Shown here piece by piece: positions 20,352 to 55,130 of a stretch of DNA of 64,000 nucleotides (position 1 is the first letter of the stretch; the number at the start of each line of letters is the position of its first letter). This stretch comes from Chloroflexota bacterium (GTDB lineage Bacteria; Chloroflexota; Dehalococcoidia; Lucifugimonadales; UBA1127), in assembly GCA_026713825.1 (NCBI GenBank), contig JAPONS010000069.1, positions 26,082 to 90,081 on the forward strand, given 5' to 3'. A model generated the notes under the pieces. The model worked only from the letters and a program-made list of their open reading frames with translations, was not told where the DNA came from and ran no database searches. Both the position numbers and the translations under genes were made by a program.

Positions 20352-21203
20352 TTAGATCCGGCTGAAGCCGCTGCCGGGTCGCTCGGCACCCCAGCCGGCG
20401 CCCTGCTCTATCACCCCGTACTCCAGGAGGAGCTTCTGGCTGTAGGTGACCGTGCCGTTGACCTTCTCCGGCGGTTCCGTAGCCAGCAGCAGCGTAGCCC
20501 GGGCCATCCACTCCGGCGGCTCCCCGTTCTCGTCTCCAATGTAGCGTGCGCCGCGGTGGAAGACCGCGCCGGCCGTGGAGACGAAGATGGAGGGAGCAAG
20601 GGAGGTCACGGCGATGTTGTCATCTTTGACCTCCTCCGCAAGCCCTTGGGTGAACCGCTCGAGGGCGGCCTTGGCGGCGCCGTAGCCGGCGAAACCAGGC
20701 AGGTTTACGGACTGCTGAGGGTACGGAGCGCTTCCCGGTCCGACGGCCGAGCCTGAGGAAATATTGACGATAGCGCCGCTCTTGCGCGGGACCATGTCCG
20801 CCAGCACGGCCTGGCTGAGGACGAAGGGCGCATGCACCATGATCTGAAAGCTGCGGAGCCATCTGCTGTATGGGAATTTGTGGACGTGCTGGAGGACCGC
20901 AAGGGCCGCATTGTTTACGAGGACATCGACGGGGCCGTAAATGCGGCGGGCCTCGTCCACCACGCGGCGGCACTCGGCAGGGTCCGTGAGGTCGGCGGGC
21001 AGCGCGGTGGCCTCGCCGCCCGCCTGGCGGATGGCTGAGACAGTGCTCTCCAGCGAACCCGGAAACGGGTGGCTGCCCTCGGTCAGGGTCCGGGCCACGC
21101 AGAGGATGCGGCCGCCCTCGGCGGCGACGCATTTGGCGATGGCTTCACCGATGCCCCTGCTGGCGCCGGTGACGATGACGCTCTTTCCGTCCAACTTGCC
21201 CAC
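20352..21203 (-). CDS. short-chain dehydrogenase/reductase (SDR), paralog 1
   Basis: Motifs KLDGKSVIVTGASRGIGEAIA (TGxxxGIG), NNAA and YGAAK (YxxxK). The only in-frame start after the upstream stop is GTG 21203, preceded by GGAGG-N6. Confidence 0.85.
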   Translation of the reverse strand: MGKLDGKSVIVTGASRGIGEAIAKCVAAEGGRILCVARTLTEGSHPFPGSLESTVSAIRQAGGEATALPADLTDPAECRRVVDEARRIYGPVDVLVNNAALAVLQHVHKFPYSRWLRSFQIMVHAPFVLSQAVLADMVPRKSGAIVNISSGSAVGPGSAPYPQQSVNLPGFAGYGAAKAALERFTQGLAEEVKDDNIAVTSLAPSIFVSTAGAVFHRGARYIGDENGEPPEWMARATLLLATEPPEKVNGTVTYSQKLLLEYGVIEQGAGWGAERPGSGFSRI

Positions 21204-21253
21204 GATGTGCCTCCACGCAGAAGCGCCGCCCGTCGCGTGTCGAGCGGCGCGGG

Positions 21254-22156
21254 CTAGATCTGGCTGTAGCCGCTGCCGGGGCGGTCTACGCCCATACCTA
21301 CGCCCTTTTCTATGACGCCGTGCTCCAGGAGGATCTTCTGGCTGTAGGTGACCATGCCGTTCATCTTCCCGGCGGGCTTCGTGGCGAGGAGGAGGACGGA
21401 TTGGGCCATCAACTCCGGCGGCTCGCCGTTCTCGTCGCCGATGTAGCGGACGCCCTTGTGGAAGACCGCGCCGGCGGTGGGGACGATGATGGAGGGGGAG
21501 AGGGCCGATACGGCGATGTTGTCGTCGCGGACTTCGAGGGCGAGGCCCTGGGTGAAGCGTTCGAGGGCGGCCTTGGCGGCGCCGTAGCCGGTGACGGCGG
21601 GCGCGTCGGGGGAAGGCGGCGCGTAGGGTGCGCTGCCCGGGCCCCTGGCGGCGCTGGAGGAAATGTTGACGATGGCGCCGCGCTTGCGGGGAACCATGTC
21701 CTCCAGCACGCACTGGCTCAGGACGAAGGATGCGTGGACGATGATCTGGAAGCTGCGGAGCCAACTGTCATAGGGGAACTCCGCAACGGGAAGGAAGACG
21801 GCGAGGGCGGCGTTGTTGACGAGGACGTCGACGGGGCCGTAGATGCGGCGGGCCTCATCGACGACGCGGCGGCACTCGTCGGGGTCGGCGAGGTCGGCGG
21901 CCAACGCAGTGGCCTCGCCGCCGGCCTCGCGGATGGCGGCGACGGTGCCCTCGAGGGAGCCGGGAAATGGGGTTTCCGCCTCGCCGGGTCGGCCCTGGTC
22001 ACGCATGTAGGTGGTCATGTCGTGACTGCCCTCGCTGAGGGTGCGGGCCACGCAGAGGATGCGGCCGCCCTCGGCGGCGAGGGTCTTGGCGATGGCCTCA
22101 CCGATGCCTCGGCTGGCGCCGGTGACGATGACGCACTGTCCGTCCAACTTGCCCAC
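21254..22156 (-). CDS. short-chain dehydrogenase/reductase (SDR), paralog 2
   Basis: Same motifs as paralog 1. GTG 22156 after GGAGG-N6 mirrors paralog 1. The ORF track allows an ATG at 22204. Carries an extra about 19-aa insert (HDMTTYMRDQGRPGEAETP). Confidence 0.85.
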   Translation of the reverse strand: MGKLDGQCVIVTGASRGIGEAIAKTLAAEGGRILCVARTLSEGSHDMTTYMRDQGRPGEAETPFPGSLEGTVAAIREAGGEATALAADLADPDECRRVVDEARRIYGPVDVLVNNAALAVFLPVAEFPYDSWLRSFQIIVHASFVLSQCVLEDMVPRKRGAIVNISSSAARGPGSAPYAPPSPDAPAVTGYGAAKAALERFTQGLALEVRDDNIAVSALSPSIIVPTAGAVFHKGVRYIGDENGEPPELMAQSVLLLATKPAGKMNGMVTYSQKILLEHGVIEKGVGMGVDRPGSGYSQI

Positions 22157-22268
22157 GATGTTCCTCCACACGAAATTGCCGCGCCTTTGAGACGGCGCGG
22201 CCATGGGTTGCGGTTTGGCTCACCGGGAAGCTACATGACGGGGTGCGGCGCGTCAAGGGACGGGGGAG

Positions 22269-25859: not shown

Positions 25860-25893
25860 GGGGCGCGTCAACGGCTTCGCGGGGAGCGGCTCG

Positions 25894-26041
25894 CCATGTG
25901 CAACGCAGCGTTGCGTATGGCGGCGGGGCACCTCCATGTTAAACGCAGCGTTTAATATGGAGCGGGTTCGGGGTCTATATTAAACGCAGCGTTGTGTATG
26001 GGGGCGTTTTGCCTCTATACTAAACGCAGAGTTTAATACTG
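25894..26041. repeat. array of four 27-bp near-palindromes with a 40-41-bp period (operator- or iteron-like)
   Basis: The units are at 25894-25920, 25934-25960, 25975-26001 and 26015-26041. The consensus is CYATRT-TAAACGC-A-GCGTTTA-RTATGG. The centres are at 25907, 25947, 25988 and 26028. Confidence 0.9.
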
Positions 26042-42185: not shown

Positions 42186-43058
42186 ATGGACGTGCGCAAG
42201 GCGGTGATTCCGGCGGCGGGGCTTGGGACCCGGCAGCTGCCGACGTCCAAGGCCGTGCCCAAGGAGCTGCTGCCCCTCATCGACCGGCCGATGCTCCACT
42301 ACATCGTGGAGGAGGCGCTGGACGCCGGGCTGTCGCAGATGGTCATCGTGACGTCACAGGGCAAGGACGCGATGGCCAACTACTTCGACCCGGCGCCGCA
42401 GCTAGAGGAGCTGCTGGGGCGCAGGGGGGAGACGTCTCTGGCGGCGGCCATGCGGCGGGTGCGGGAGGAGGCCGAGTTCATCTTTGTGCGGCAGCACCAG
42501 CAGCTCGGGCTGGGGCACGCCGTCTACACGGCGCGCAACGCCGTCGGCGACGAACCCTTCGCCGTCATGCTGCCGGACGACGTCATCGGCGGCGGCGAGG
42601 CCCCCGCCATCGGCGAGCTGCTCGACACGGCGACGACGCACGACGCGTCGGTCATCGCCGTCGAGCAGGTGCCGCCGGAGCGGATCAGCAGCTACGGCGT
42701 CGTCGCGCCCGGCGAGGCCGACGGCGACGCCATCCGGGTGCTCGGCATGGTGGAGAAGCCGCCGGCCGCAGAGGCGCCCTCGGACCTGGGCATCGTCGGG
42801 CGGTACGTGCTTACGCCGGAGGTGTTCGGCGCGATGGAGCGGGTCACCCCCGGCGCGGGCGGCGAACTGCAGCTTACCGACGGCATCGCGCTGCTGCTGG
42901 AGGAGCAGCCGGTGTACGCGCGGCGGTTCACCGGCACGCGCTACGACGCGGGCAACCCGATGGGAATGCTGCGGGCGTCGGTGTCGCTGGCGCTGCGGCG
43001 GCCCGACCTCGGCCCCGCCTTCCGGGCGTGGCTGGAAAACGAACTGAACAACACCTAG
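42186..43058 (+). CDS. galU: UTP--glucose-1-phosphate uridylyltransferase
   Basis: KAVIPAAGLGTRQLPTSKAVPKELLPL and VEKP motifs. Confidence 0.9.
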   Translation: MDVRKAVIPAAGLGTRQLPTSKAVPKELLPLIDRPMLHYIVEEALDAGLSQMVIVTSQGKDAMANYFDPAPQLEELLGRRGETSLAAAMRRVREEAEFIFVRQHQQLGLGHAVYTARNAVGDEPFAVMLPDDVIGGGEAPAIGELLDTATTHDASVIAVEQVPPERISSYGVVAPGEADGDAIRVLGMVEKPPAAEAPSDLGIVGRYVLTPEVFGAMERVTPGAGGELQLTDGIALLLEEQPVYARRFTGTRYDAGNPMGMLRASVSLALRRPDLGPAFRAWLENELNNT

Positions 43059-43067
43059 GGGGACGGC

Positions 43068-43970
43068 ATGGACGTGGGATTCATCGGCCTTGGAGCGATG
43101 GGGCGGCACATGGCGCGGCACCTGCAGACGGCAGGCCACACCATGATCGTGCACGACATCCGGCGCGAGGCGGCGACGCCCTACCTGGAAGCCGGCGCGA
43201 ACTGGGGCGAAACACCAAGAGAGGTGGCGCAGGCGGCAGAGGTGGTGTTCACGTCGCTGCCGGGGCCGGCGGACGTCGAGTCCGTGGCCGTGGGAACGGA
43301 CGGCATCATCGCGGGGTCGTCGAGCGGGCAGGTGTACGTCGACCTCTCCACCAACTCGCCCGTCCTGACGCGGCGGCTGCACGCCGAGTTCGCCGAGAAG
43401 GGCGTCCGGATGCTGGACTGCCCGGTGAGCGGCGGCACGGTGGGCGCGGAGGCGGCGACGCTCGCGCTCCTCGTCGGCGGCGACAAGGACCTGTACGAGG
43501 AGCTGCTGCCGGTGCTGCAGTGCATCGGCGACAAGCCCTTCTACTGCGGGCCCGCCGGCGCGGGGCAGGTGTGCAAGCTCGTCAACAACTACATCTCGCT
43601 CTCGGTGCAACCGCTGCTGGCCGAGGCCTTTTCCATCGGCGTGAAGGCGGGCGTGGACGCGGGCACGCTGTACGAGGCCATCGTCCGGAGCACGGGCAAC
43701 ACGCAGACGATGCAGCGCCGCTACCCGACCGGGCTCCTCAAGGGCAATTTTGCGCCCGGGTTCACGGTGAACCTGGGCCGCAAGGACCTGACGCTGGGGC
43801 TGCAGCTCGCCGAGGATTTTGGGGTTCCGGTGCAGTTTGGGCCGATAGCGCTCGGCGAGTACGCGGCGTCGGCGGAGCGCGACCGCGGGCTGCTGGACAC
43901 CGGCTCCGTCGCGCTGATGCAGGAGGAGCGCGCGGGCGTCGAGATCCGCGCGGACATCAAGCCGCGGTAG
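43068..43970 (+). CDS. NAD(P)-dependent oxidoreductase, 3-hydroxyisobutyrate dehydrogenase family, paralog 1
   Basis: MDVGFIGLGAMGRHMA Rossmann motif, DCPVSGG and KLVNN. Confidence 0.85.
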   Translation: MDVGFIGLGAMGRHMARHLQTAGHTMIVHDIRREAATPYLEAGANWGETPREVAQAAEVVFTSLPGPADVESVAVGTDGIIAGSSSGQVYVDLSTNSPVLTRRLHAEFAEKGVRMLDCPVSGGTVGAEAATLALLVGGDKDLYEELLPVLQCIGDKPFYCGPAGAGQVCKLVNNYISLSVQPLLAEAFSIGVKAGVDAGTLYEAIVRSTGNTQTMQRRYPTGLLKGNFAPGFTVNLGRKDLTLGLQLAEDFGVPVQFGPIALGEYAASAERDRGLLDTGSVALMQEERAGVEIRADIKPR

Positions 43971-43998
43971 CCCCCGAGAAAACCATAGGGAGAACAAC

Positions 43999-44901
43999 GT
44001 GGACGTAGGATTCATCGGCCTTGGCGCGATGGGACGGCACATGACCCGGCACCTGCAGGCGGCGGGGCACAATATGACCGTGCACGACATTCGCCGGGAG
44101 GCGGCCACGCCCTTCCTGGAGGCCGGGGCGAACTGGGGCGACACGCCGCAGCAGGTGGCGCAGGCGTCGGAGGTGGTGTTCACCTCGCTGCCGGGGCCGG
44201 TGGAGGTCGAGGCGGTGGCGCTGGGGCCGGAGGGCATCGCGGCCGGGGCGTCGAACGGGCAGGTGTACGTCGACCTCTCGACGAACTCGCCCGTCCTGAC
44301 GCGGCGGCTTCACGCCGATCTGGCGGCCAAGGGCATCCGCATGCTCGACTGCCCGGTCAGCGGCGGCACCATCGGCGCCGAGGAAGCCACGCTCGCGCTG
44401 CTGGTCGGCGGCGACAATGCGCTGTACAAGGATCTGCTGCCGGTGCTGCGGTGCATCGGCGACAAGCCCTTCTACTGCGGGCCCGCGGGCGCCGGGCAGG
44501 TGTGCAAGCTGGTCAACAACTACATCACGCTCTCGCTGCAGCCGCTGCTGGCCGAGGCCTTCTCCATCGGCGTGAAGGCCGGCGTGGACGCGGGCACGCT
44601 TTTCGAGGCCGTGAGCCGCAGCACGGGCAACACCCGGTCCATGCAGTGGAGGTATCCACCCGCCCTGCTCAAGGGCAACTTCGCACCCACGTTCACGGTT
44701 GACCTTGTCCGCAAGGACCTGGGTCTGGCGATCGAGCTGGCGGAGCAGTTCGGCGTGCCGCTGCAGCTCGGCCCGCTGGCGTACAAGGAGTACGACGACA
44801 TGTCGAAGAGCGGCCGCGGGAATCTCGACACGAGCTCCGTTGCGCTGCTGCAGGAGGAGCGCGCCGGCGTCGAGATCCGCGCCGACGTGGAGCCCCACTA
44901 A
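43999..44901 (+). CDS. NAD(P)-dependent oxidoreductase, 3-hydroxyisobutyrate dehydrogenase family, paralog 2
   Basis: Same length (300 aa) as paralog 1 and collinear with it, with no indels. Most positions are identical by eye. Confidence 0.85.
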   Translation: MDVGFIGLGAMGRHMTRHLQAAGHNMTVHDIRREAATPFLEAGANWGDTPQQVAQASEVVFTSLPGPVEVEAVALGPEGIAAGASNGQVYVDLSTNSPVLTRRLHADLAAKGIRMLDCPVSGGTIGAEEATLALLVGGDNALYKDLLPVLRCIGDKPFYCGPAGAGQVCKLVNNYITLSLQPLLAEAFSIGVKAGVDAGTLFEAVSRSTGNTRSMQWRYPPALLKGNFAPTFTVDLVRKDLGLAIELAEQFGVPLQLGPLAYKEYDDMSKSGRGNLDTSSVALLQEERAGVEIRADVEPH

Positions 44902-46033: not shown

Positions 46034-46627
46034 GTGGGCGCGGAAGACGTCACCATCACGGAGGGTCTCGCGGCCGAGCACGTCGAGGACGCGCTGCGGA
46101 TACTGTTCGGGGCCTTCGCGAAGAAGCTGCACATCGGGTTCCGCGACGCCGACGACTTCGTCCGGCTGTTCCGCGACGGCGTCAACCCGGCGGCCTGCCT
46201 CTCGGCCACCGCGTCCGGCGAGTTGCTCGGCATCCTGGGGCTCCAATCGCCCGGCGGGGAGCTCTACGATTTCCGGCCCAAGTCCCTGTTCCTGCGCTTC
46301 TCGCCGTGGCGAGCCGTCCTCATCCTCGCCAACATGCTCGTCCTGTACTCGCCGCCGCGGAAGGACGCGCTGGTCGTTGACCAGCTTGCCGTTGCGCCGT
46401 CAGCACGCGGCAGGGGCATCGGCACGCTGCTGCTGGAGGCGGCGGAGACGAGGGGGCGCGCGATGGGGATGCCAAAGATGGCCCTCAGCGTAATCTCGGA
46501 GAACGAGGGCGCCATCCGCCTGTACGAGCGCATGGGGTACGTGCGGACGCAGGCAATCGGAGGCACGCTGGTGCGCATGGTGGCCAGGTCGGCGGAGGTG
46601 TGGCACATGGAGAAGGAGCTGGGGTGA
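46034..46627 (+). CDS. GNAT family N-acetyltransferase
   Basis: QLAVAPSARGRGIGTLLL acetyl-CoA motif and C-terminal NEGAIRLYERMGY. Confidence 0.8.
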   Translation: MGAEDVTITEGLAAEHVEDALRILFGAFAKKLHIGFRDADDFVRLFRDGVNPAACLSATASGELLGILGLQSPGGELYDFRPKSLFLRFSPWRAVLILANMLVLYSPPRKDALVVDQLAVAPSARGRGIGTLLLEAAETRGRAMGMPKMALSVISENEGAIRLYERMGYVRTQAIGGTLVRMVARSAEVWHMEKELG

Positions 46628-46654
46628 TGCCAACCCTGACCGTCATCCGCCGTG
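46627..46654 (+). repeat. distal copy of the comF 5' end (ATG plus 8 codons), left boundary of cassette
   Basis: ATGCCAACCCTGACCGTCATCCGCCGTG here versus ATGCCAACCCTGACCGCCATCCGCCGCG at 47591-47618 (26 of 28 identical). Its ATG overlaps the GNAT TGA stop. Confidence 0.9.
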
Positions 46655-46765
46655 AAGGTGCTGTGCGCTTGATTGGCCGATGAATTACAGTTCGACGGTA
46701 TGATATACTTGCCGTAAACAAGCTGTGAATTGGCCCTTGATGGCTCACCCAACCGGAGGGAATTT

Positions 46766-47011
46766 GTGAGTGAGGCGCTCCAAGAGGAATTCCAGAACTA
46801 CCTCGCCTACCAGGCTGATTTCGTGGCTAAGTACGACGGACGCTTCATCGCGCTGAAAGATGGCGTGGTGCTTGGCGACTACGATAGCGCGGGCGAGGCG
46901 ATGCTTGACCTACGTGACACCCACCCAATTGGCACATACCTCATCCAGAGAGTGTCCCCGGGCGACAAGGACACGAAAGTTTCAATCTATTCTCCTGTGG
47001 TGGCCCCATAG
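46766..47011 (+). CDS. small hypothetical protein (DUF5678-like pattern, tentative)
   Basis: YDGRFIALKDGVVLGDYDSAGEAM resembles short proteins of the G-x-(W/F)-(V/I)-A-x-x-D-G-x-V type. GTG 46766 after GGAGGG; the ORF track start is 46730. Confidence 0.4.
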   Translation: MSEALQEEFQNYLAYQADFVAKYDGRFIALKDGVVLGDYDSAGEAMLDLRDTHPIGTYLIQRVSPGDKDTKVSIYSPVVAP

Positions 47012-47040
47012 CAACGCGACAGGGTCCCCTCAGCTTCACC

Positions 47041-47499
47041 GTGGAAGGCGATGACCTTCTTAACGTCTTGACGACGCAATGCGGCGTCTCTGCGTACACT
47101 CCTAGCTTGTACACGACCCCGTCTGCAATGCCCGACTTCACCGCCCTCTGGGATACCGGAGCCACCATCTGCATGGTGTCTCAAGCGATCGTCGACGCCT
47201 GCGGATTGGTGGAGGTTGGGGCTACAGACGTCAGCCATGCAATGGGCACATCCCAGCAAGTTGCGCTCTACTACATCAGCCTTCGTTTGCCCAGTGGCGC
47301 CGTGATCGATGAGGTCCGGGCCATCAAGGGCATCTTGCCGGAGGACCTGCATATGGTCATTGGCATGAATGTCATAAACGAGGGTGACTTTGTCATCACC
47401 AATCGGAACGGAAGGACTAAGTTTTCCTTTCGCGTGCCCTCGCAAGCCGACATAGACTTTGTGACAGAGGATGCAGCTACAGGCGGTACGCCAACCTAA
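47041..47499 (+). CDS. retropepsin-like (clan AA) aspartic protease
   Basis: ALWDTGATICMVS contains the D-T-G-A catalytic motif. The later VIGMNVINEGDFVI matches the retropepsin flap/dimer pattern. 152 aa. Confidence 0.6.
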   Translation: MEGDDLLNVLTTQCGVSAYTPSLYTTPSAMPDFTALWDTGATICMVSQAIVDACGLVEVGATDVSHAMGTSQQVALYYISLRLPSGAVIDEVRAIKGILPEDLHMVIGMNVINEGDFVITNRNGRTKFSFRVPSQADIDFVTEDAATGGTPT

Positions 47500-47590
47500 A
47501 GAAGATGTTACCCAGCATTGTGAGCCTGTCGGATTCTATGAGTTCTATCTCGCTGGATTCGGCCTCTCCAATGCTACAATTCCTCCCACC

Positions 47591-47618
47591 ATGCCAACCC
47601 TGACCGCCATCCGCCGCG
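47591..47618 (+). repeat. proximal copy of the comF 5' end (functional start of comF)
   Basis: See the feature at 46627-46654. Preceded by the extended -10-like TGCTACAAT. Confidence 0.9.
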
Positions 47619-48235
47619 TCGCCAACGCCGCGCTTGACCTGCTGCTGCCGCGCAAGTGCGTGGGGTGCAGGCGCGAGGGCGCGTTCCTGTGCGACCGGTG
47701 CATCGCCGAGACGCCGCGGGCCGCCGACACAACCGGCGTCGGGCTGCAGCTGGTGCTGGCGCCGTTCGAGATGAAGGGCGCGGCGCAGAAGGCCGTCCAC
47801 CGGCTCAAGTACAACGGCGTTCGCGGGCTGGCCGCGCCGATGGGCGCCGCGATGGCGCAGCACCTCCAGCGGCACGGCGTCTCGCCCGACGTCATCGTGC
47901 CCGTGCCGCTCCATCGCTCGCGACAGCGCGAGCGCGGCTACAACCAGGCCGAGCTGCTGGCGCGCGAGGTCGGGCGGTGGCTTGAGGCGCCTGTCAACGC
48001 GGGGCTGCTGGCGCGCACCGAGAGCGCGGGCCCGCAGGCGCGGTCGGCATCGCGGGAGGAGCGGCAGGCGAACGTCGAGGGGGCGTTCAAGGCGCAGCGC
48101 GAGGCCATCGGCAAGTCGATCGTCATCGTGGACGACGTCACCACCACGGGCGCGACGCTGCAGGCGTGCGCGGCGACGCTGCGGCAGGCCGGCGCTCGTC
48201 GGACGTGGGGACTGACCTTCGCCCGCGAGATCTAG
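47591..48235 (+). CDS. comF: ComF-family phosphoribosyltransferase-domain protein
   Basis: N-terminal Zn motif CVGCRREGAFLCDRC and the PRT motif IVIVDDVTTTGATL. Confidence 0.85.
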   Translation: MPTLTAIRRVANAALDLLLPRKCVGCRREGAFLCDRCIAETPRAADTTGVGLQLVLAPFEMKGAAQKAVHRLKYNGVRGLAAPMGAAMAQHLQRHGVSPDVIVPVPLHRSRQRERGYNQAELLAREVGRWLEAPVNAGLLARTESAGPQARSASREERQANVEGAFKAQREAIGKSIVIVDDVTTTGATLQACAATLRQAGARRTWGLTFAREI

Positions 48236-48387: not shown

Positions 48388-48969
48388 ATGGAGATGCAGA
48401 TCCAGGCAAGGAACCACCGGCTCTCCCAGGGGACCCGCGACTACCTGACCAGGAAGCTGGAGCGCATTGAGGGCCGAGTCAACCTGCCGATTGACGCCCA
48501 TGTTGTGGTGTCTGAGGAGCAAACGCGCTCGCAGCAGGACCGCATCCTGGTGGAAGTGACGCTGCGGTGCAACGGCACGCTGCTTCGCGGGCAACGACGC
48601 GCCGCGACGGTACACGCCGCAGTCGACGCCCTCGCCGACACCCTCGACCGGCGGGTGGCCCACTTCAAGAGCCGCGCATACCGCAGCGAGGCGGCCCATC
48701 GCCACGGCGACATCCACAGCATCCGCGAGCTCGAGGCGCCGCCCGTCGACGAGCCCGACGAGGACGAGCCGGAGGAGTTTGAGCTGGGCCGCGTGGTGCG
48801 CTCCAAGCGCTTCGCCATGAAGCCGATGTCCGTGGAGGAGGCGGTAGTGGAGATGGAGCTGCTGGAACACGCCTTCTACCTCTTCCACAACGCGGCCACG
48901 GGCGCCCACAACGTCCTCTACCGCCGCAACGACGGCGACTACGGCCTCATCGAGCCGGTGGAGGCGTAG
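48388..48969 (+). CDS. hpf: ribosome hibernation promoting factor, long form
   Basis: MEMQIQARNHRLSQGTRDYLTRKLERI N-domain. C-terminal dimerisation domain KRFAMKPMSVEEAVVEMELLEHAFYLFHN. SD is AGGAGG. Confidence 0.9.
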   Translation: MEMQIQARNHRLSQGTRDYLTRKLERIEGRVNLPIDAHVVVSEEQTRSQQDRILVEVTLRCNGTLLRGQRRAATVHAAVDALADTLDRRVAHFKSRAYRSEAAHRHGDIHSIRELEAPPVDEPDEDEPEEFELGRVVRSKRFAMKPMSVEEAVVEMELLEHAFYLFHNAATGAHNVLYRRNDGDYGLIEPVEA

Positions 48970-51693: not shown

Positions 51694-52854
51694 CTAGTCC
51701 TGACCGGACGCTTCGCCTTCATCGGGCGCGTCCTCATGCAGGACGGGCGCCCCCGCCGCGTCCAGCAGCGGCGCATCGGCCTGCGACGCGGCATTCCACT
51801 GGCGGCAGAAGTAGACGATGAGATCGCGGCCCAGGGCGGTCAGCGGCGGGCCGAGGATGACGCCCCACAGCCCGAAGAAGTGGCTGCCGATGGTGATCAC
51901 AAGGATGACGGCGATGGGGTGCAGGTTCAGCGTCTCGGCCTGGATGCGCGGCACCAGCAGGGTGTTTTCCAGGAGCTGGACAGCCAAGTAGAGCAGGATG
52001 ACCCAGACGACCTTGTCCGGCTCCGTCGCGAGGGTCACGAGGACGCCGACTCCGCCGCCAATCCACGGGCCGATGATGGGCACCAGCTCGGTGAGGCCCG
52101 CGACGACGCCCAGCACCACGGCAAACGGGACGTCCAGCGCCAGCAGCCCAATGGTCACGATGGCCCCAACCACCACGCCGAGGGTGAGCTGCCCCCGGAT
52201 GTAGCCGCCCAGCGTGCGGTCCGCCATGTCGATCAGGTCGCGCAGGTAGGGGTGCATGGAGGCGGGAAAGGGGGCGCGCAAGGACTGCACAATGACCCCG
52301 CCGTCCTTCATCAGGTAGAAGACCAGCACGGGGGCGGTCGCCAGTGCAAGGATGAAGGCAAAGGAGCCGGTGATGATGCCCAGGGTCTGCTCGACCACGC
52401 TCCAGGCAGCGCTGCCGACGATGTCCCCCACATTCGCCAGCGCCTCCTCGATCTGGTCCCGCGCATCCTGGGAGATGACGTCAACGTATTCTTCGACCCA
52501 TCCCTCGATCGTCACGCGGGCGCCCTGGAGGAACTCGGGGAAGCCCTCGGCGAACTGCCGCCCCTGGTCGACTGTCGGGGGGATGACGGCGAGGAAGACA
52601 CTCACGAGGACCGCCAGGGCCGCGAGGAAGATGATCCCGACGGCGGAGGTCCGCGCGAGGCCCGGGCGGCCGTGCCGCCAGGGCAGCCGCCGCTCGATGA
52701 ACCGGGCCACCGGCAGCAGCACGTAGGCGATGACGATGCTGATGCCCAGCGGCAGCAGCACCGACCCCAGCACGTACACCAACGCCAGCGCCAGCAGCAG
52801 CACGGCGGCAAACGCCGCCAGGTGCGCGCGTTCCCGTGACAGGTGAAATGGCAT
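51694..52854 (-). CDS. AI-2E family transporter (PerM/UPF0118)
   Basis: From the internal Met MPFHLS. Eight hydrophobic segments and an ELVPIIGPWIGG motif. Confidence 0.85.
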   Translation of the reverse strand: MPFHLSRERAHLAAFAAVLLLALALVYVLGSVLLPLGISIVIAYVLLPVARFIERRLPWRHGRPGLARTSAVGIIFLAALAVLVSVFLAVIPPTVDQGRQFAEGFPEFLQGARVTIEGWVEEYVDVISQDARDQIEEALANVGDIVGSAAWSVVEQTLGIITGSFAFILALATAPVLVFYLMKDGGVIVQSLRAPFPASMHPYLRDLIDMADRTLGGYIRGQLTLGVVVGAIVTIGLLALDVPFAVVLGVVAGLTELVPIIGPWIGGGVGVLVTLATEPDKVVWVILLYLAVQLLENTLLVPRIQAETLNLHPIAVILVITIGSHFFGLWGVILGPPLTALGRDLIVYFCRQWNAASQADAPLLDAAGAPVLHEDAPDEGEASGQD

Positions 52855-52948
52855 GGCTGGCTCCCTATCCTCGCATCGTTGGGGTTCGGGCAGGCACAGG
52901 GTACCCGATTGCAGGGGCGTTGTGGTGAGGGTAGGCTGGAGTCGCGTT
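52839..52948. repeat. direct repeat copy A: first 5 codons plus about 95 bp upstream of the AI-2E transporter gene
   Basis: ACAGGTGAAATGGCATGGCTGGCTCCCTATCCTCGCATCGTTGGGGTTCGGGCAGGCACAGGGTACCCGATTGCAGGGGCGTTGTGGTGAGGG aligns with 53970-54072. Confidence 0.85.
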
Positions 52949-53129: not shown

Positions 53130-53534
53130 ATGGTCGTAGACCGCCAGGACAAGTATCGAGCAATGGTGGTCCGGGGCAAGTACCAGAGGCTGTACACGTA
53201 CCTGAGCAGTCTTCAGGCCCAGGAGTGGAGGACCTCCTTCAACGAGGTCGAGGCGGTCATCGGATTCGAGCTGCCTCCGTCCGCACGGCTGCACCGGCCC
53301 TGGTGGGGAAATCAGAGGGGCGGCAGCGGCCACAGCCACGCCCTCGCCTGGAGCGTCGCCGGATGGGAGGCGGCGGAGGTGGATATGGAAGCCGAGACGC
53401 TGCTGTTCCGGCGAACGGATCCCAAGCCGGTACCCAGGCTTCCCCTTGACGAAGCATGGCCCGTCCATCCCACCGCGGTGTGGCCGGAAAGCTTGAGTCT
53501 CAGGAGAGAGGACCTCTACGAGGGGAGGGGTTAG
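53130..53534 (+). CDS. putative non-canonical antitoxin partner of VapC
   Basis: The motif FNEVEAVIGFELPPSARLHRPWWGN...AGWEAAEVDMEAETLLFRR recurs in small proteins from mobile contexts. The C-terminal tail is SLSLRREDLYEGRG. The gene ends 7 nt before the PIN gene. Confidence 0.45.
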   Translation: MVVDRQDKYRAMVVRGKYQRLYTYLSSLQAQEWRTSFNEVEAVIGFELPPSARLHRPWWGNQRGGSGHSHALAWSVAGWEAAEVDMEAETLLFRRTDPKPVPRLPLDEAWPVHPTAVWPESLSLRREDLYEGRG

Positions 53535-53541
53535 GCCAGCC

Positions 53542-53964
53542 ATGTTCATAGACACCAACGTGCTGGTAAAGTCTCGTGTCCCCGGCGCGCCGGACCACAA
53601 CGCGGCCAGGGCGAGCCTGGAACGCGCTTTTCGAGACCCTGAACCGCTCAGGATCAGTCGCCAGGTGATACGCGAGTACCTGTCGGTGGTCACGCGCCCG
53701 CAGACGTGGCCGGTGGCTATCACTCGCGAGGAAGCTCTCGACGACGTGAGCAGGCTGATTGGCAGCTTCGAGATACTTGAAGACGGCCCCGTGGTGACCG
53801 AGCTGCTGGTGGCCCTGTGCCGAGAGGTTCCCGCAGGGGGGCAGCAGATTCACGACGCCAACATCGTTGCGACCATGCTCGCGCGTGGAGAGCGCAGGCT
53901 CCTCACGTTCAACACAGCAGACTTTCGGCGTTACGGAGACCGCATAGAGTTGGTGGGAGGCTAG
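53542..53964 (+). CDS. vapC: PIN-domain toxin (VapC family)
   Basis: MFIDTNVLV, REYLSV, IHDANIVATM and LLTFNTADF. All four acidic/PIN signature positions are recognisable. Confidence 0.8.
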   Translation: MFIDTNVLVKSRVPGAPDHNAARASLERAFRDPEPLRISRQVIREYLSVVTRPQTWPVAITREEALDDVSRLIGSFEILEDGPVVTELLVALCREVPAGGQQIHDANIVATMLARGERRLLTFNTADFRRYGDRIELVGG

Positions 53965-53969
53965 CGAGC

Positions 53970-54072
53970 ACAGGTTGAATGGCATCGCTCCCTATCCTCG
54001 CATGGTTGCCGTTCGGGCAGGGGACAGAGTACCCGTTTGCGGGGGCATTGTGGTGGGGGGCCTGAGCGCTTG
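53970..54072. repeat. direct repeat copy B (diverged pseudo-5' end of the AI-2E transporter gene)
   Basis: ACAGGTTGAATGGCATCGCTCCCTATCCTCGCATGGTTGCCGTTCGGGCAGGGGACAGAGTACCCGTTTGCGGGGGCATTGTGGTGGGGGG. On the minus strand it begins ATGCCATTCAACCTG (MPFNL), against MPFHL in the real gene. Confidence 0.85.
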
Positions 54073-54322: not shown

Positions 54323-54697
54323 TTGGGGCGTTTCAGGGGAAGGAGATGGTCTTTGGCAGAAGAACTCTGGCGCACTGACAACCCTTGCACAGGCACACAG
54401 AGTTATTTGCACGACACAAACTGGGGTTCCCACACACGGAAGAGGCCGGAGATCAGAGGTCGTTTGCGGGAGGTCCAAGAAACCGTAAAGGACCCGGATT
54501 TTGCGCTCCGTGACGAGCAGGGAGTAGTATTCAAGTACCGAATGGGCTTCGGACAAGGCAAGCTGGCAAGGCTCTGGCTTCTCGTCATTGAGGAAGCGGA
54601 CCAGCGAGGAGCCCACTACGTCAAGAGCGCCTACTTCACGTCCGACATAAGGGACTACGAGGCCCTCTGCATTAGAAGGATACCGGCGATTGGGTGA
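54323..54697 (+). CDS. hypothetical small protein, possible toxin partner of the downstream DUF2283-like gene (start uncertain)
   Basis: The C-terminal half ...VQETVKDPDFALRDEQGVVFKYRMG...RLWLLVIEEADQRGAHYVKSAYFT fits the pattern of small RelE-fold or DUF4258-like toxins. Overlaps the next gene by 8 nt. Confidence 0.3.
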   Translation: MGRFRGRRWSLAEELWRTDNPCTGTQSYLHDTNWGSHTRKRPEIRGRLREVQETVKDPDFALRDEQGVVFKYRMGFGQGKLARLWLLVIEEADQRGAHYVKSAYFTSDIRDYEALCIRRIPAIG

Positions 54698-55130
54698 CGA
54701 CATGAGCATGGAGCATGCGTTTGACAGGCTGAAGAAGTCTGCAAAGGACGACGCGGAGGCATTGGCCGCCCGCTTCCTGCAAGTGAATGCGGACATGACG
54801 GGCATGATCGAGCGCGCGGGCATCCTCATCGAGTATGAGCGCGAGCGTGACCACCTCTACATGACACTGGGCGAGCCGCGTGAGGGAATGGCGCTCACCG
54901 TGGGCCATCTGGTTGTCCTTGCTGACCCGGAGACGTTGGAGTTCATCGGCTTTGAGATCCCCGACTTCAAGAAGGCAGTCGAGACCGATGCCCTCAAGGA
55001 GTGGGCGCGCATCTTGCCCTTCATCGAATGGCAGCCAGTCGTGCACATTCCGCCCGCAGCACACAACGACGAGGTGACATTTCCTCGGGAAATCGCCGAG
55101 GGAGTACAGCGAGAGTTGGTCCACGTCTAG
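54690..55130 (+). CDS. DUF2283-like protein (possible antitoxin)
   Basis: IEYERERDHLYMTLGEPREGMALTVGHLVVLADPETLEFIGFEI matches the DUF2283 pattern YD.e.D.LYI.l...e...v..D....ivGiEI. Confidence 0.4.
   Translation: MGDDMSMEHAFDRLKKSAKDDAEALAARFLQVNADMTGMIERAGILIEYERERDHLYMTLGEPREGMALTVGHLVVLADPETLEFIGFEIPDFKKAVETDALKEWARILPFIEWQPVVHIPPAAHNDEVTFPREIAEGVQRELVHV

Follow-up and report, generated by a model that had tools for sequence, protein, structure and literature searches.

A window of 64,000 nucleotides (nt) from a Chloroflexota bacterium was found to carry the first 28 nt of comF twice, once at the true start of the gene and once upstream, as a short copy (the stub) that opens on the stop codon of a GNAT acetyltransferase gene. 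Between the two copies lies a cassette of two genes, encoding a small DUF5678-like protein and a retropepsin-like aspartic protease. We lean towards the reading that the stub is a dead comF 5' end, a recombination scar left by host-recombination insertion-duplication between two haplotypes of this interval. Positions given without a contig name refer to the window, i.e., the whole 64-kb stretch.

The comF start is duplicated around a two-gene cassette

The features of the locus are as follows.

46034..46627, plus strand: GNAT acetyltransferase gene (PF00583 at 5.9e-16), with its TGA at 46625-46627
46627..46654, plus strand: left copy, the stub (putative pseudo-5' end of comF), sequence ATGCCAACCCTGACCGTCATCCGCCGTG
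46697..46709, plus strand: promoter-like extended -10 of the cassette, GGTATGATATACT, followed by a ~50-nt leader and the Shine-Dalgarno sequence GGAGGG at 46755-46760; putative function
46766..47011, plus strand: small protein gene, DUF5678-like family, 81 aa, GTG start
47008..47499, plus strand: retropepsin-like aspartic protease gene (WDTGAT, VIGMN), first canonical start GTG at 47041
47572..47580, plus strand: -10-like TGCTACAAT, located 10 nt before the comF ATG, which lacks a Shine-Dalgarno sequence
47591..47618, plus strand: right copy, the true comF start, sequence ATGCCAACCCTGACCGCCATCCGCCGCG
47591..48235, plus strand: comF (PF00156, PF18912; orthologues at 79-91%)
48388-48969: hpf, the next gene 3' of comF

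The A of the GNAT stop codon is also the A of the stub ATG (46627-46629), and the gene end reads GTGATG. The left and right copies are identical at 26 of 28 positions and start 964 nt apart, the stub frame runs for 18 codons to a TGA at 46681-46683, and the sequences 5' of the two ATGs are unlike (GGAGCTGGGGTG vs. TTCCTCCCACC). A preliminary description of this DNA, made from the letters alone, had reported the overlap, the copy, the spacing, the frame and the lack of upstream likeness, and all of these were verified in the sequence. The GC profile (0.69 before, 0.52-0.60 between the copies and 0.74 in comF) and a domain search, which found no recombinase or transposase domain in either cassette protein, also agree with its account of lower-GC DNA that encodes a small protein and a DTGA protease and no recombinase; the DNA does look foreign, and its gene family is associated with phages. 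The stub possibly extends, in decayed form, to about 46672, where GCGCTTGA is shared at a 1-nt offset, an extension that is suggestive only. The gene itself is of the ComFC type, with a double zinc ribbon and a phosphoribosyltransferase domain, and the N-terminus MPTLTAIR is common to most ComF orthologues. Its neighbors around the cassette are genes for FMN dehydrogenase, GNAT, hpf and mutL.

The pair of copies could in principle lack any biological history, having arisen as a coincidence of sequence or as a chimera of the assembly, since the genome is GC-rich and codon-biased, and the same 23-mer was found inside an IS110-type transposase gene on unrelated metagenome contigs (L089 986-1008 and L090 1252-1274, exact matches to the 23-nt comF-start pattern within ..ALYMPTLTAIRRNRDL..), which is taken as a coincidence of GC-rich coding sequence. 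Against this, the 23-nt pattern with up to 3 mismatches is confined to the two copies within the 64 kb, two matches never occurred together in 100 shuffles, and the match is anchored exactly on two ATGs. Moreover, an independent metagenome contig of 1028 nt (L088, MKWU01107353.1) carries the same junction of GNAT, stub and small gene, with the GNAT protein 100% and the small protein 99% identical to those of the window; the left junction is therefore no assembly artefact. A sister genome (L093) has an orthologous, decayed copy. Together, the shuffles, the L088 junction and the L093 copy effectively refute an origin by chance or chimerism.

A direct-repeat scan of the whole window (pairs of at least 22 nt, 400-4000 nt apart, with tandem paralogues and protein repeats set aside) gave two pairs besides that at the comF start, 52860/53987 and 1598/5204. 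The first is treated below; the second (23/26) lies within coding sequence, shows no extension and is probably due to chance. No second copy of the cassette or of its ends was found within the window. Exact-protein look-ups of the window GNAT and protease open reading frames (ORFs) gave no match, probably because of differing start calls. Long direct repeats elsewhere in the window are explained by tandem paralogues at 43058-44901 (two NAD-binding dehydrogenase genes, 83% identical) and by a second tandem pair at 20353-22182, with a spacing of ~902-953 nt. Four 28-nt palindromic units at 25893-26041 (consensus TCCATGTTAAACGCAGCGTTTAATATGG, spacing 40-41 nt) resemble an operator-site array.

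Distribution of the stub and the cassette among relatives

Ten related Chloroflexi contigs, with ComF identities of 79-91%, were fetched. All share the same flanks, with two NAD-binding dehydrogenase genes and the FMN dehydrogenase gene upstream and comF and hpf downstream. Between the FMN dehydrogenase gene and comF, at least seven different arrangements were seen. The interval is a hypervariable islet and not the site of a single insertion. The arrangements are listed below.

Empty, 10 nt from the FMN dehydrogenase stop to the comF ATG: L086, L087
Exo/endonuclease/phosphatase (EEP) gene: L085
GNAT and an RCC1-repeat lipoprotein gene: L084
Cassette only: L001
Cassette and EEP: L092
GNAT and cassette: L002, L003, L091
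GNAT, stub and cassette: window, L088, L093

GNAT orthologues were found at 80-91% identity in L002, L003, L084 and L093, and the GNAT ending GGGGTGATG is common to five of the six GNAT-bearing relatives. In L092 (1177-1968), the EEP stop codon has been lost (TGA to TTA compared with L085), and the frame continues past the start of comF as far as a TGA within that gene.

The stub was then compared with the presence of GNAT and cassette in each genome.

Window: GNAT and cassette present; stub 26/28 after GNAT TGATG
L093 (sister): GNAT and cassette present; stub ATGGCGTACCTGACCGCC..., 19/28, where the best of 1505 ATG-anchored null segments reaches 18
L084: GNAT present, cassette absent (RCC1 gene instead); resemblance to comF 5' ends (40/78, p about 0.002) in an ORF that overlaps the GNAT stop
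L002, L003, L091: GNAT and cassette present; no detectable stub
L001, L092: GNAT absent, cassette present; no detectable stub

The stub was thus lacking in five of the six other cassette-bearing genomes, and it was found only directly after a GNAT TGATG. By this distribution, the stub goes with the GNAT 3' end and not with the cassette. The decayed version at the same place in L093 supports the earlier proposal that the copy beside GNAT is a relic of a comF 5' end. The preliminary description had also stated that both copies in relatives without the cassette would refute its proposal of an insertion, and the findings come close to this, as the stub follows GNAT, is possibly present in the cassette-free L084 and is absent from L001 and L092, which have the cassette only or the cassette with EEP. 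Its other stated doubt, that the copy is the start of a conserved small ORF, was dispelled by the sister copy, which diverges at or above the neutral rate: 11 of the 28 positions differ between the L093 and window stubs, compared with ~24% of those in the remaining spacer and ~20% of 4-fold sites. Compared with the comF start, the stub has 2 differences in the window and 9 in L093.

We consider it very improbable that the left copy has been kept because it is functional, either as a GNAT-coupled leader peptide (MPTLTVIRREGAVRLIGR) or as an RNA or DNA element that links the expression of GNAT, cassette and comF or imitates the start of comF. The 26/28 match would in that case be maintained by selection or gene conversion. 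The window stub is clearly less decayed than both the neighboring ~20 nt and the stub of the sister, and the overlap of an ATG with the GNAT stop is kept in five of six GNAT-bearing genomes. However, neither the length nor the sequence of the ORF is conserved (18 codons in the window, 20 in L093, a differing sequence in L002 and L003, and no ATG in L091), no structure was predicted, Rfam gave no match for an RNA element at the locus, and the decay of the sister copy described above is as fast as, or faster than, expected under neutrality.

Further observations concern the DNA that follows GNAT in other genomes. In L084 (2735-2812), the ATG that shares bases with the GNAT stop opens the RCC1-repeat lipoprotein gene, and the signal peptide of this gene, MASTMRIHHIAIAVLAVAAFAACGGG, is the comF-like region; a comF stub may have been reused here as a lipoprotein signal peptide, which is suggestive only. 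This RCC1 gene carries one frameshift near 2930, on a contig of 6x coverage. The spacers between GNAT and cassette in the clade A genomes (L002 4853-5000, L091 3019-3166 and L003 4848-5000) contain a piece like the EEP 5' end (GTCTACGCGTGCTCAATTGCAGCGGCG) and another, in the cassette leader, like comF nt 62-85. Only 1-2 of 1471 background segments score as well as either piece, and ~130 comparisons were made, which leaves both suggestive and not secure. Homology between the post-GNAT sequences of L084 and of the L002-type genomes was not significant.

The cassette was found at the same site in L001, L002, L003, L091, L092 and L093, and pairwise identities of flanking genes and of cassette genes give the same groups, namely {window, L093}, {L002, L091, L003, L084} and {L001, L092}. 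Because the cassette identities mirror those of the flanking genes, the cassette is old at this site, vertically inherited and already present in the common ancestor of these lineages, and it is no recent arrival in the lineage of the window. The cassette genes show an amino-acid identity of ~0.79 compared with a 4-fold-site identity of ~0.6, which indicates purifying selection. In L084, L085 and L086 the cassette was later lost or replaced.

A search of relatives for an empty site, as suggested in the preliminary description, had a divided outcome: L086 and L087 are empty, but both lack GNAT and therefore show no GNAT-comF junction. Such a junction was found in none of the ten contigs, and a metagenome scan for the 23-mer gave one window-like contig, the two IS110 matches and no empty GNAT-comF site. 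A scan of contigs with ComF, in which a generic motif saturated the scan, gave distant relatives only (up to 52% identity), none of them with FMN dehydrogenase, GNAT or cassette beside comF.

A promoter-like motif precedes comF behind every type of insert

The -10-like motif upstream of comF is probably a promoter for a leaderless or near-leaderless comF mRNA. The sequence ATGCTAnGAT (TGCTAnnAT), followed by GACCCCGCC and the ATG, stands before comF in all 8 insert-bearing haplotypes, whether the insert is the cassette, the EEP gene or the RCC1 gene, and is missing from the empty L086 only. It is therefore not specific to the cassette, contrary to the first description, in which it was taken as cassette-borne. 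Two readings can be put forward: either the motif is comF's own promoter and was deleted in L086, or it arrived with the first insertion and has been kept since.

Origin of the duplication

Under the scar reading, two haplotypes would have met. In one of them GNAT would be translationally coupled to comF (GTGATGCC...), and in the other a cassette with its own promoter would lie upstream of a comF bearing its own -10. An incoming segment consisting of cassette, comF -10 and the first ~28-47 nt of comF would have entered the GNAT-comF chromosome via a homologous crossover within the start of comF on one side and an illegitimate joint on the other, i.e., by insertion-duplication (Campbell or 'ends-in') or by homology-facilitated illegitimate recombination. 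The reciprocal route, in which GNAT and stub enter a cassette-bearing chromosome, would yield the same product. The repeat begins exactly at the ATG, which is where the GNAT-type and promoter-type upstream sequences diverge, and this would be because the homology between the haplotypes begins there; the model would also account for the end of the repeat after a few dozen bases and for the lack of a recombinase. Precise loss of the cassette between the 26/28 repeats would restore GNAT-comF with the empty site ...GAGCTGGGGTGATGCCAACCCTGACCGCCATCCGCCGCGTCGCC..., and a circle product would join the protease 3' region and the comF -10 through one 28-mer to AAGGTGCTG.... The repeat, the variability of the locus, the age of the cassette at its site, the tie of the stub to GNAT and the common comF -10 are observed directly; the recombination pathway, the GNAT-comF parent, the precise cassette loss, the promoter function and the leaderless comF mRNA are what we infer. 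The comF 5' end seems to tolerate exchange, since the first ~15 codons are replaced in some orthologues: P0132, P0144 and P0145, which are ComF orthologues at 82-88% overall, have unrelated first ~15 residues (MTMINFIGFQRVAAG.. and MLAWAGFQRVAAG..).

Several points weigh against the scar reading. No GNAT-comF parent haplotype was found, and the sole empty site type (L086) also lacks GNAT. The lineage phylogeny is star-like and unrooted, and the order of gains and losses is thus not fixed. The window stub is better preserved than that of the sister and than would be expected if it were older than their split, which hints that it may have been refreshed later, via recombination with a GNAT-comF haplotype or by gene conversion, unless chance preserved it. 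The clade A genomes with GNAT and cassette show no stub, and more than one event is therefore needed. The absence of the comF -10 motif from the sole empty site means that the motif could be the shared right end of inserted DNA and not a native promoter. Finally, 28 nt lies at the lower limit for RecA-dependent exchange.

Three other sources of such repeats were considered and set aside. For integron attC sites, both repeat pairs (at comF and at the second locus described below) were folded as single strands; the z-scores, from -0.8 to +1.9, did not stand out from those of shuffles, and there was no hairpin. On inspection, the 28-mer lacks the inverted 11-nt arms of a Xer/dif-like site. A transposon target-site duplication does not fit a repeat of at least 28 nt with no inverted repeats at the cassette ends and no transposase.

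Similar duplications at other gene ends

The repeat pair 52860/53987 belongs to a second case in the window, in which the start of an AI-2E transporter gene is duplicated.

51694-52854, minus strand: AI-2E transporter gene (PF01594 at 1.7e-56)
52839..52931: proximal copy, a ~93-nt repeat whose minus strand holds ~78 nt from upstream of the AI-2E transporter gene together with that gene's ATG and first 5 codons
53130..53964, plus strand: second cassette, with a DUF7662 gene at 53130-53534 (PF24698, 1.9e-12) and a PIN-domain gene at 53542-53964 (PF01850, 3.8e-10)
53970..54059: distal copy of the AI-2E start and upstream region, with MPFNL instead of MPFHL

The two copies align over 94 nt at 82% identity, and the DNA that they bracket is again of lower GC. 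The pair of DUF7662 and PIN genes looks like a toxin-antitoxin pair. The low-GC stretch continues to ~55340 and holds an overlapping ORF pair (54323-54697 and 54690-55130) that had no Pfam match; no repeat flanking this ORF pair (54323-55130) was found.

In L002 and L091, the intact hpf gene is followed by further copies of its 3' end, 191-288 nt long and 94-96% identical (L002 6922-7209, 7793-7983 and 9166-9453; L091 5166-5361 and 5934-6130). These repeats bracket inserts of 0.6-1.2 kb with small unannotated genes.

These loci bear on the alternative that the 28-nt repeat is the attL/attR core of an attachment (att) site, the cassette being a cis-mobilisable remnant or satellite of an element that is directed to the comF start and brings along a new promoter and 5' end for the gene, with its recombinase encoded elsewhere or since deleted. 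Direct repeats stand exactly at the ends of the low-GC DNA, inserts of every type share a right end (ATGCTAnGAT-GACCCCGCC-ATG) that the empty L086 lacks, as would be expected of a common att-proximal end, and three loci in the clade show gene-end duplications around small inserts, as at e14/icd and SXT/prfC. Toxin-antitoxin-like pairs are, moreover, typical last survivors of decayed islands. We nevertheless consider this alternative unlikely. There is no recombinase in or beside the cassette, the stub travels with GNAT and the left repeat is lacking in most of the other cassette-bearing genomes, the cassette is old and vertically inherited, and its ends, compared by eye, are unlike those of a related copy on contig L095, which lacks a flanking repeat. 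Repeat lengths also vary between loci, and because they span 28 to 288 nt, captured homology fits better than a fixed staggered cut or an att core. The proposal of site-specific integration with a replacement 5' end, made in the preliminary description, stands in one part, since incoming DNA with its own comF start fits the data; its site specificity is unsupported, given the lack of a recombinase and of a hairpin, the age of the cassette and the tie of the stub to GNAT.

The recurrence at gene ends leaves a more regular mechanism in play. In its fullest form, such a reading would hold that this clade captures and releases small accessory cassettes at gene starts and ends by a regular, reversible process, with a cargo that is typically a toxin-antitoxin-like or phage-derived pair. 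The short copy of the neighboring gene end carried by each cassette would be a portable homology or att site, and the host gene would never be broken. The process would have acted three times in the loci described here, with 28 nt of the comF start, 93 nt at the AI-2E start and 191-288 nt of the hpf 3' end. The DUF5678-like protein and retropepsin would form a new phage-borne two-gene system carried along by it, and in this clade the protease would lack a canonical start codon and be re-initiated at ATA. As a joint proposition, this chain of claims seems to us improbable.

The cassette genes

The extended -10 of the cassette lies within a block that is conserved in the alignment of all 7 cassette-bearing genomes, and it occurs once in the window. 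On the minus strand, at 46700-46729, a consensus scan calls a sigma-70-like promoter (TTCACA, 18-nt spacer, TATCAT) that overlaps this plus-strand -10 and could mean divergent or antisense transcription toward GNAT.

The start of the small gene was first placed at TTG 46730 and is most likely the GTG at 46766, behind the Shine-Dalgarno sequence; NCBI calls the same 81-aa start in a Chloroflexi metagenome-assembled genome (OXC99_08720). The small protein has 16 close homologues, and a profile search gave 716 representative clusters at E<=1e-3. PF18929 (DUF5678) is matched by 15 of 48 sampled family members, with a best value of 1.4e-7, and not by the window protein itself. An AlphaFold2 (AF2) model of the small protein has a predicted local distance difference test (pLDDT) value of 78; a structure search gave no significant fold neighbor in the PDB, and no solved relative was found by sequence.

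The protease is a predicted retropepsin-fold aspartic protease. Its Pfam match, PF13975 at 1.2e-5, is below the gathering score (26.3 bits against a cut-off of 28.2 for PF13975, and 20.5 against 24.3 for PF13650), and many of its homologues carry both of these domains in precomputed annotations. D49, T50 and G51 are invariant across 57 protease sequences. The AF2 model has a pLDDT of 86.7 and a predicted template modeling (TM) score (pTM) of 0.80, and the top Foldseek matches were the Rickettsia protease APRc (5c9f/5c9b, E 2.6e-6) and retroviral proteases, among them that of equine infectious anemia virus (EIAV, 1fmb, TM 0.76, rmsd 1.9). Many homologues end in a strongly basic C-terminal tail, which the window protein lacks.

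The gene call of the protease had to be revised, as conserved coding starts at ~47008, at the stop of the small gene and upstream of any canonical start. More precisely, the conserved coding runs from ATA 47008, a codon that shares bases with the TAG of the small gene. Neither window positions 47005-47045 nor the same site in L001, L002, L003, L091, L092 and L093 hold a conserved canonical start codon for the protease, and all seven genomes read CC-ATA-G/A in this region. As far as the stop of the small gene, the N-terminal segment (..SFTVEGDxLLNVL..) is kept among the genomes while its codons vary synonymously, and the ATA sits where distant homologues start, ~8 codons before SFT. This arrangement suggests translation of the protease by re-initiation at ATA 47008 or at another non-standard start, in which case the N-terminus would be at or near I/M-ATRQGPLSFTVEG.

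The two genes form a linked pair well beyond this locus. With the protease as bait, 80 IMG/VR loci (L100-L179) were fetched, and in all 80 the protease gene directly follows a DUF5678-like gene of the same orientation. In most of these viral copies, stop and start overlap or are -5 to +10 nt apart, and the protease start is normally ATG. The neighborhoods are diverse (252 neighboring proteins fall into 190 clusters) and include integrases, tape-measure proteins, anti-repressors (Ant), endolysins, methyltransferases and repressors. On L095, a sponge-metagenome contig, a 48%-identical pair lies between the genes for the alpha and beta subunits of a Rieske dioxygenase; no flanking repeat longer than 12 nt was found there. 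Plasmid collections gave no cassette matches, GenBank phages gave 5 weak matches only, and a search of the literature library found nothing on DUF5678 or on the pair of DUF5678-like protein and protease. The profile searches and neighborhood comparison that had been proposed for both cassette proteins thus reveal a phage-associated, strictly linked pair with diverse neighbors, and the pair is an as yet uncharacterised accessory module that is widespread in phages and in islets of chromosomes.

The pair has the layout of a type II toxin-antitoxin system, with small, co-directional, tightly coupled genes, its own putative promoter and a patchy, mobile distribution. No toxin or antitoxin family was matched in Pfam, NCBIfam or PADLOC, and the sole defence-type signal was a weak similarity to PDC-M08B in 15 of 57 protease homologues. 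A toxin-antitoxin-like or defence-type role is a guess.

With regard to other bacterial retropepsin-like proteases (Rickettsia APRc and the families PF13975 and PF13650), the window family shares the DTG(A) motif, the second motif of a hydrophobic residue followed by Gly-Met-Asp/Asn and the predicted retropepsin fold. While APRc is membrane-anchored and autotransporter-like, the window family comprises soluble-looking proteins of ~150-190 aa, differs in its conserved N-terminal SFT..LLNVL and C-terminal TKFSFRxPSxADIDF segments and in the basic tail of most members, and is always preceded by a DUF5678-like gene.

Implications and comparison with known systems

If the scar reading is true, the locus would be a clean natural example of how packed operons take up foreign genes and leave their neighbors unbroken, with the incoming DNA bringing a spare start for the neighboring gene and a dead stub left behind. 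Three signatures in one clade, two of them within 64 kb, suggest that this route is common in sponge-type Chloroflexi and can be searched for systematically; gene-end stubs would then mark past insertions and cassettes that can be lost precisely. The pair of DUF5678-like protein and retropepsin, with hundreds of relatives on phage and prophage contigs, is a candidate new accessory, toxin-antitoxin or defence module.

The SXT/R391 elements resemble the window in that foreign DNA sits in the first codons of a housekeeping gene and the adjoining DNA supplies the start. Hochhut and Waldor reportedly found in 1999 that this DNA also supplies a promoter for prfC. A published account of these elements, which cites Hochhut and Waldor (1999), describes integration in the 5' end of a gene that is kept functional, with a leftover of the target 5' end at the other junction (PMC2791158). 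Integration at the 5' end of a protein gene with replacement of that end, regarded as unusual in the preliminary description, has a precedent here (PMC2791158). SXT differs in being ~100 kb in size, with its own tyrosine integrase, a defined attP/attB core and the same ends everywhere, whereas the window insert is 0.94 kb in size, with no recombinase and no conserved ends, and its stub is absent from most genomes with a cassette at the same site.

The prophages e14 and phage 21 integrate into icd with an element-borne replacement gene end. The long, slightly diverged gene-end duplication around these inserts resembles the hpf repeats of L002 and L091. However, e14 and phage 21 bear integrases and duplicate the 3' end, whereas the inserts described here measure 0.6-1.2 kb and lack an integrase, and in the window 5' ends are duplicated.

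Homology-facilitated illegitimate recombination, with stubs left behind, has been proposed for type VI secretion system (T6SS) effector-immunity and Rhs orphan arrays (PMC5361080). As in the window, such displacement arrays have one homologous anchor flank, new modules beside it and old fragments left as stubs, with no dedicated recombinase and with many haplotypes among relatives (PMC5361080). In those arrays, the stubs are 3' ends or orphan immunity genes downstream of a constant 5' region; in the window, by contrast, the stub stems from a 5' end, a housekeeping gene provides the anchor with its start, and unrelated accessory genes make up the cargo.

In Campbell-type insertion-duplication, a circular or 'ends-in' DNA with a short chromosomal fragment integrates; the insert ends up flanked by two direct copies of precisely that fragment and can be lost again by recombination between them. 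It is known mainly from laboratory insertion-duplication mutagenesis, where the homologies used are hundreds of bases long, whereas the natural case proposed here, with 28-93 nt, is inferred only. Integron and chromosomal toxin-antitoxin cassettes are also like the window cassette in being ~1 kb long and in carrying one gene or a pair, in some cases behind a promoter of their own; they accumulate at a single site 5' of a constant gene. The window differs in that no attC-like hairpin (z-scores +0.4 to +1.9) and no integron integrase were found and in that the repeats copy the neighboring gene and not a site borne by the cassette. What sets these loci apart from the known cases is their scale (1-kb cassettes free of a recombinase), their position at start codons and their recurrence in one clade.

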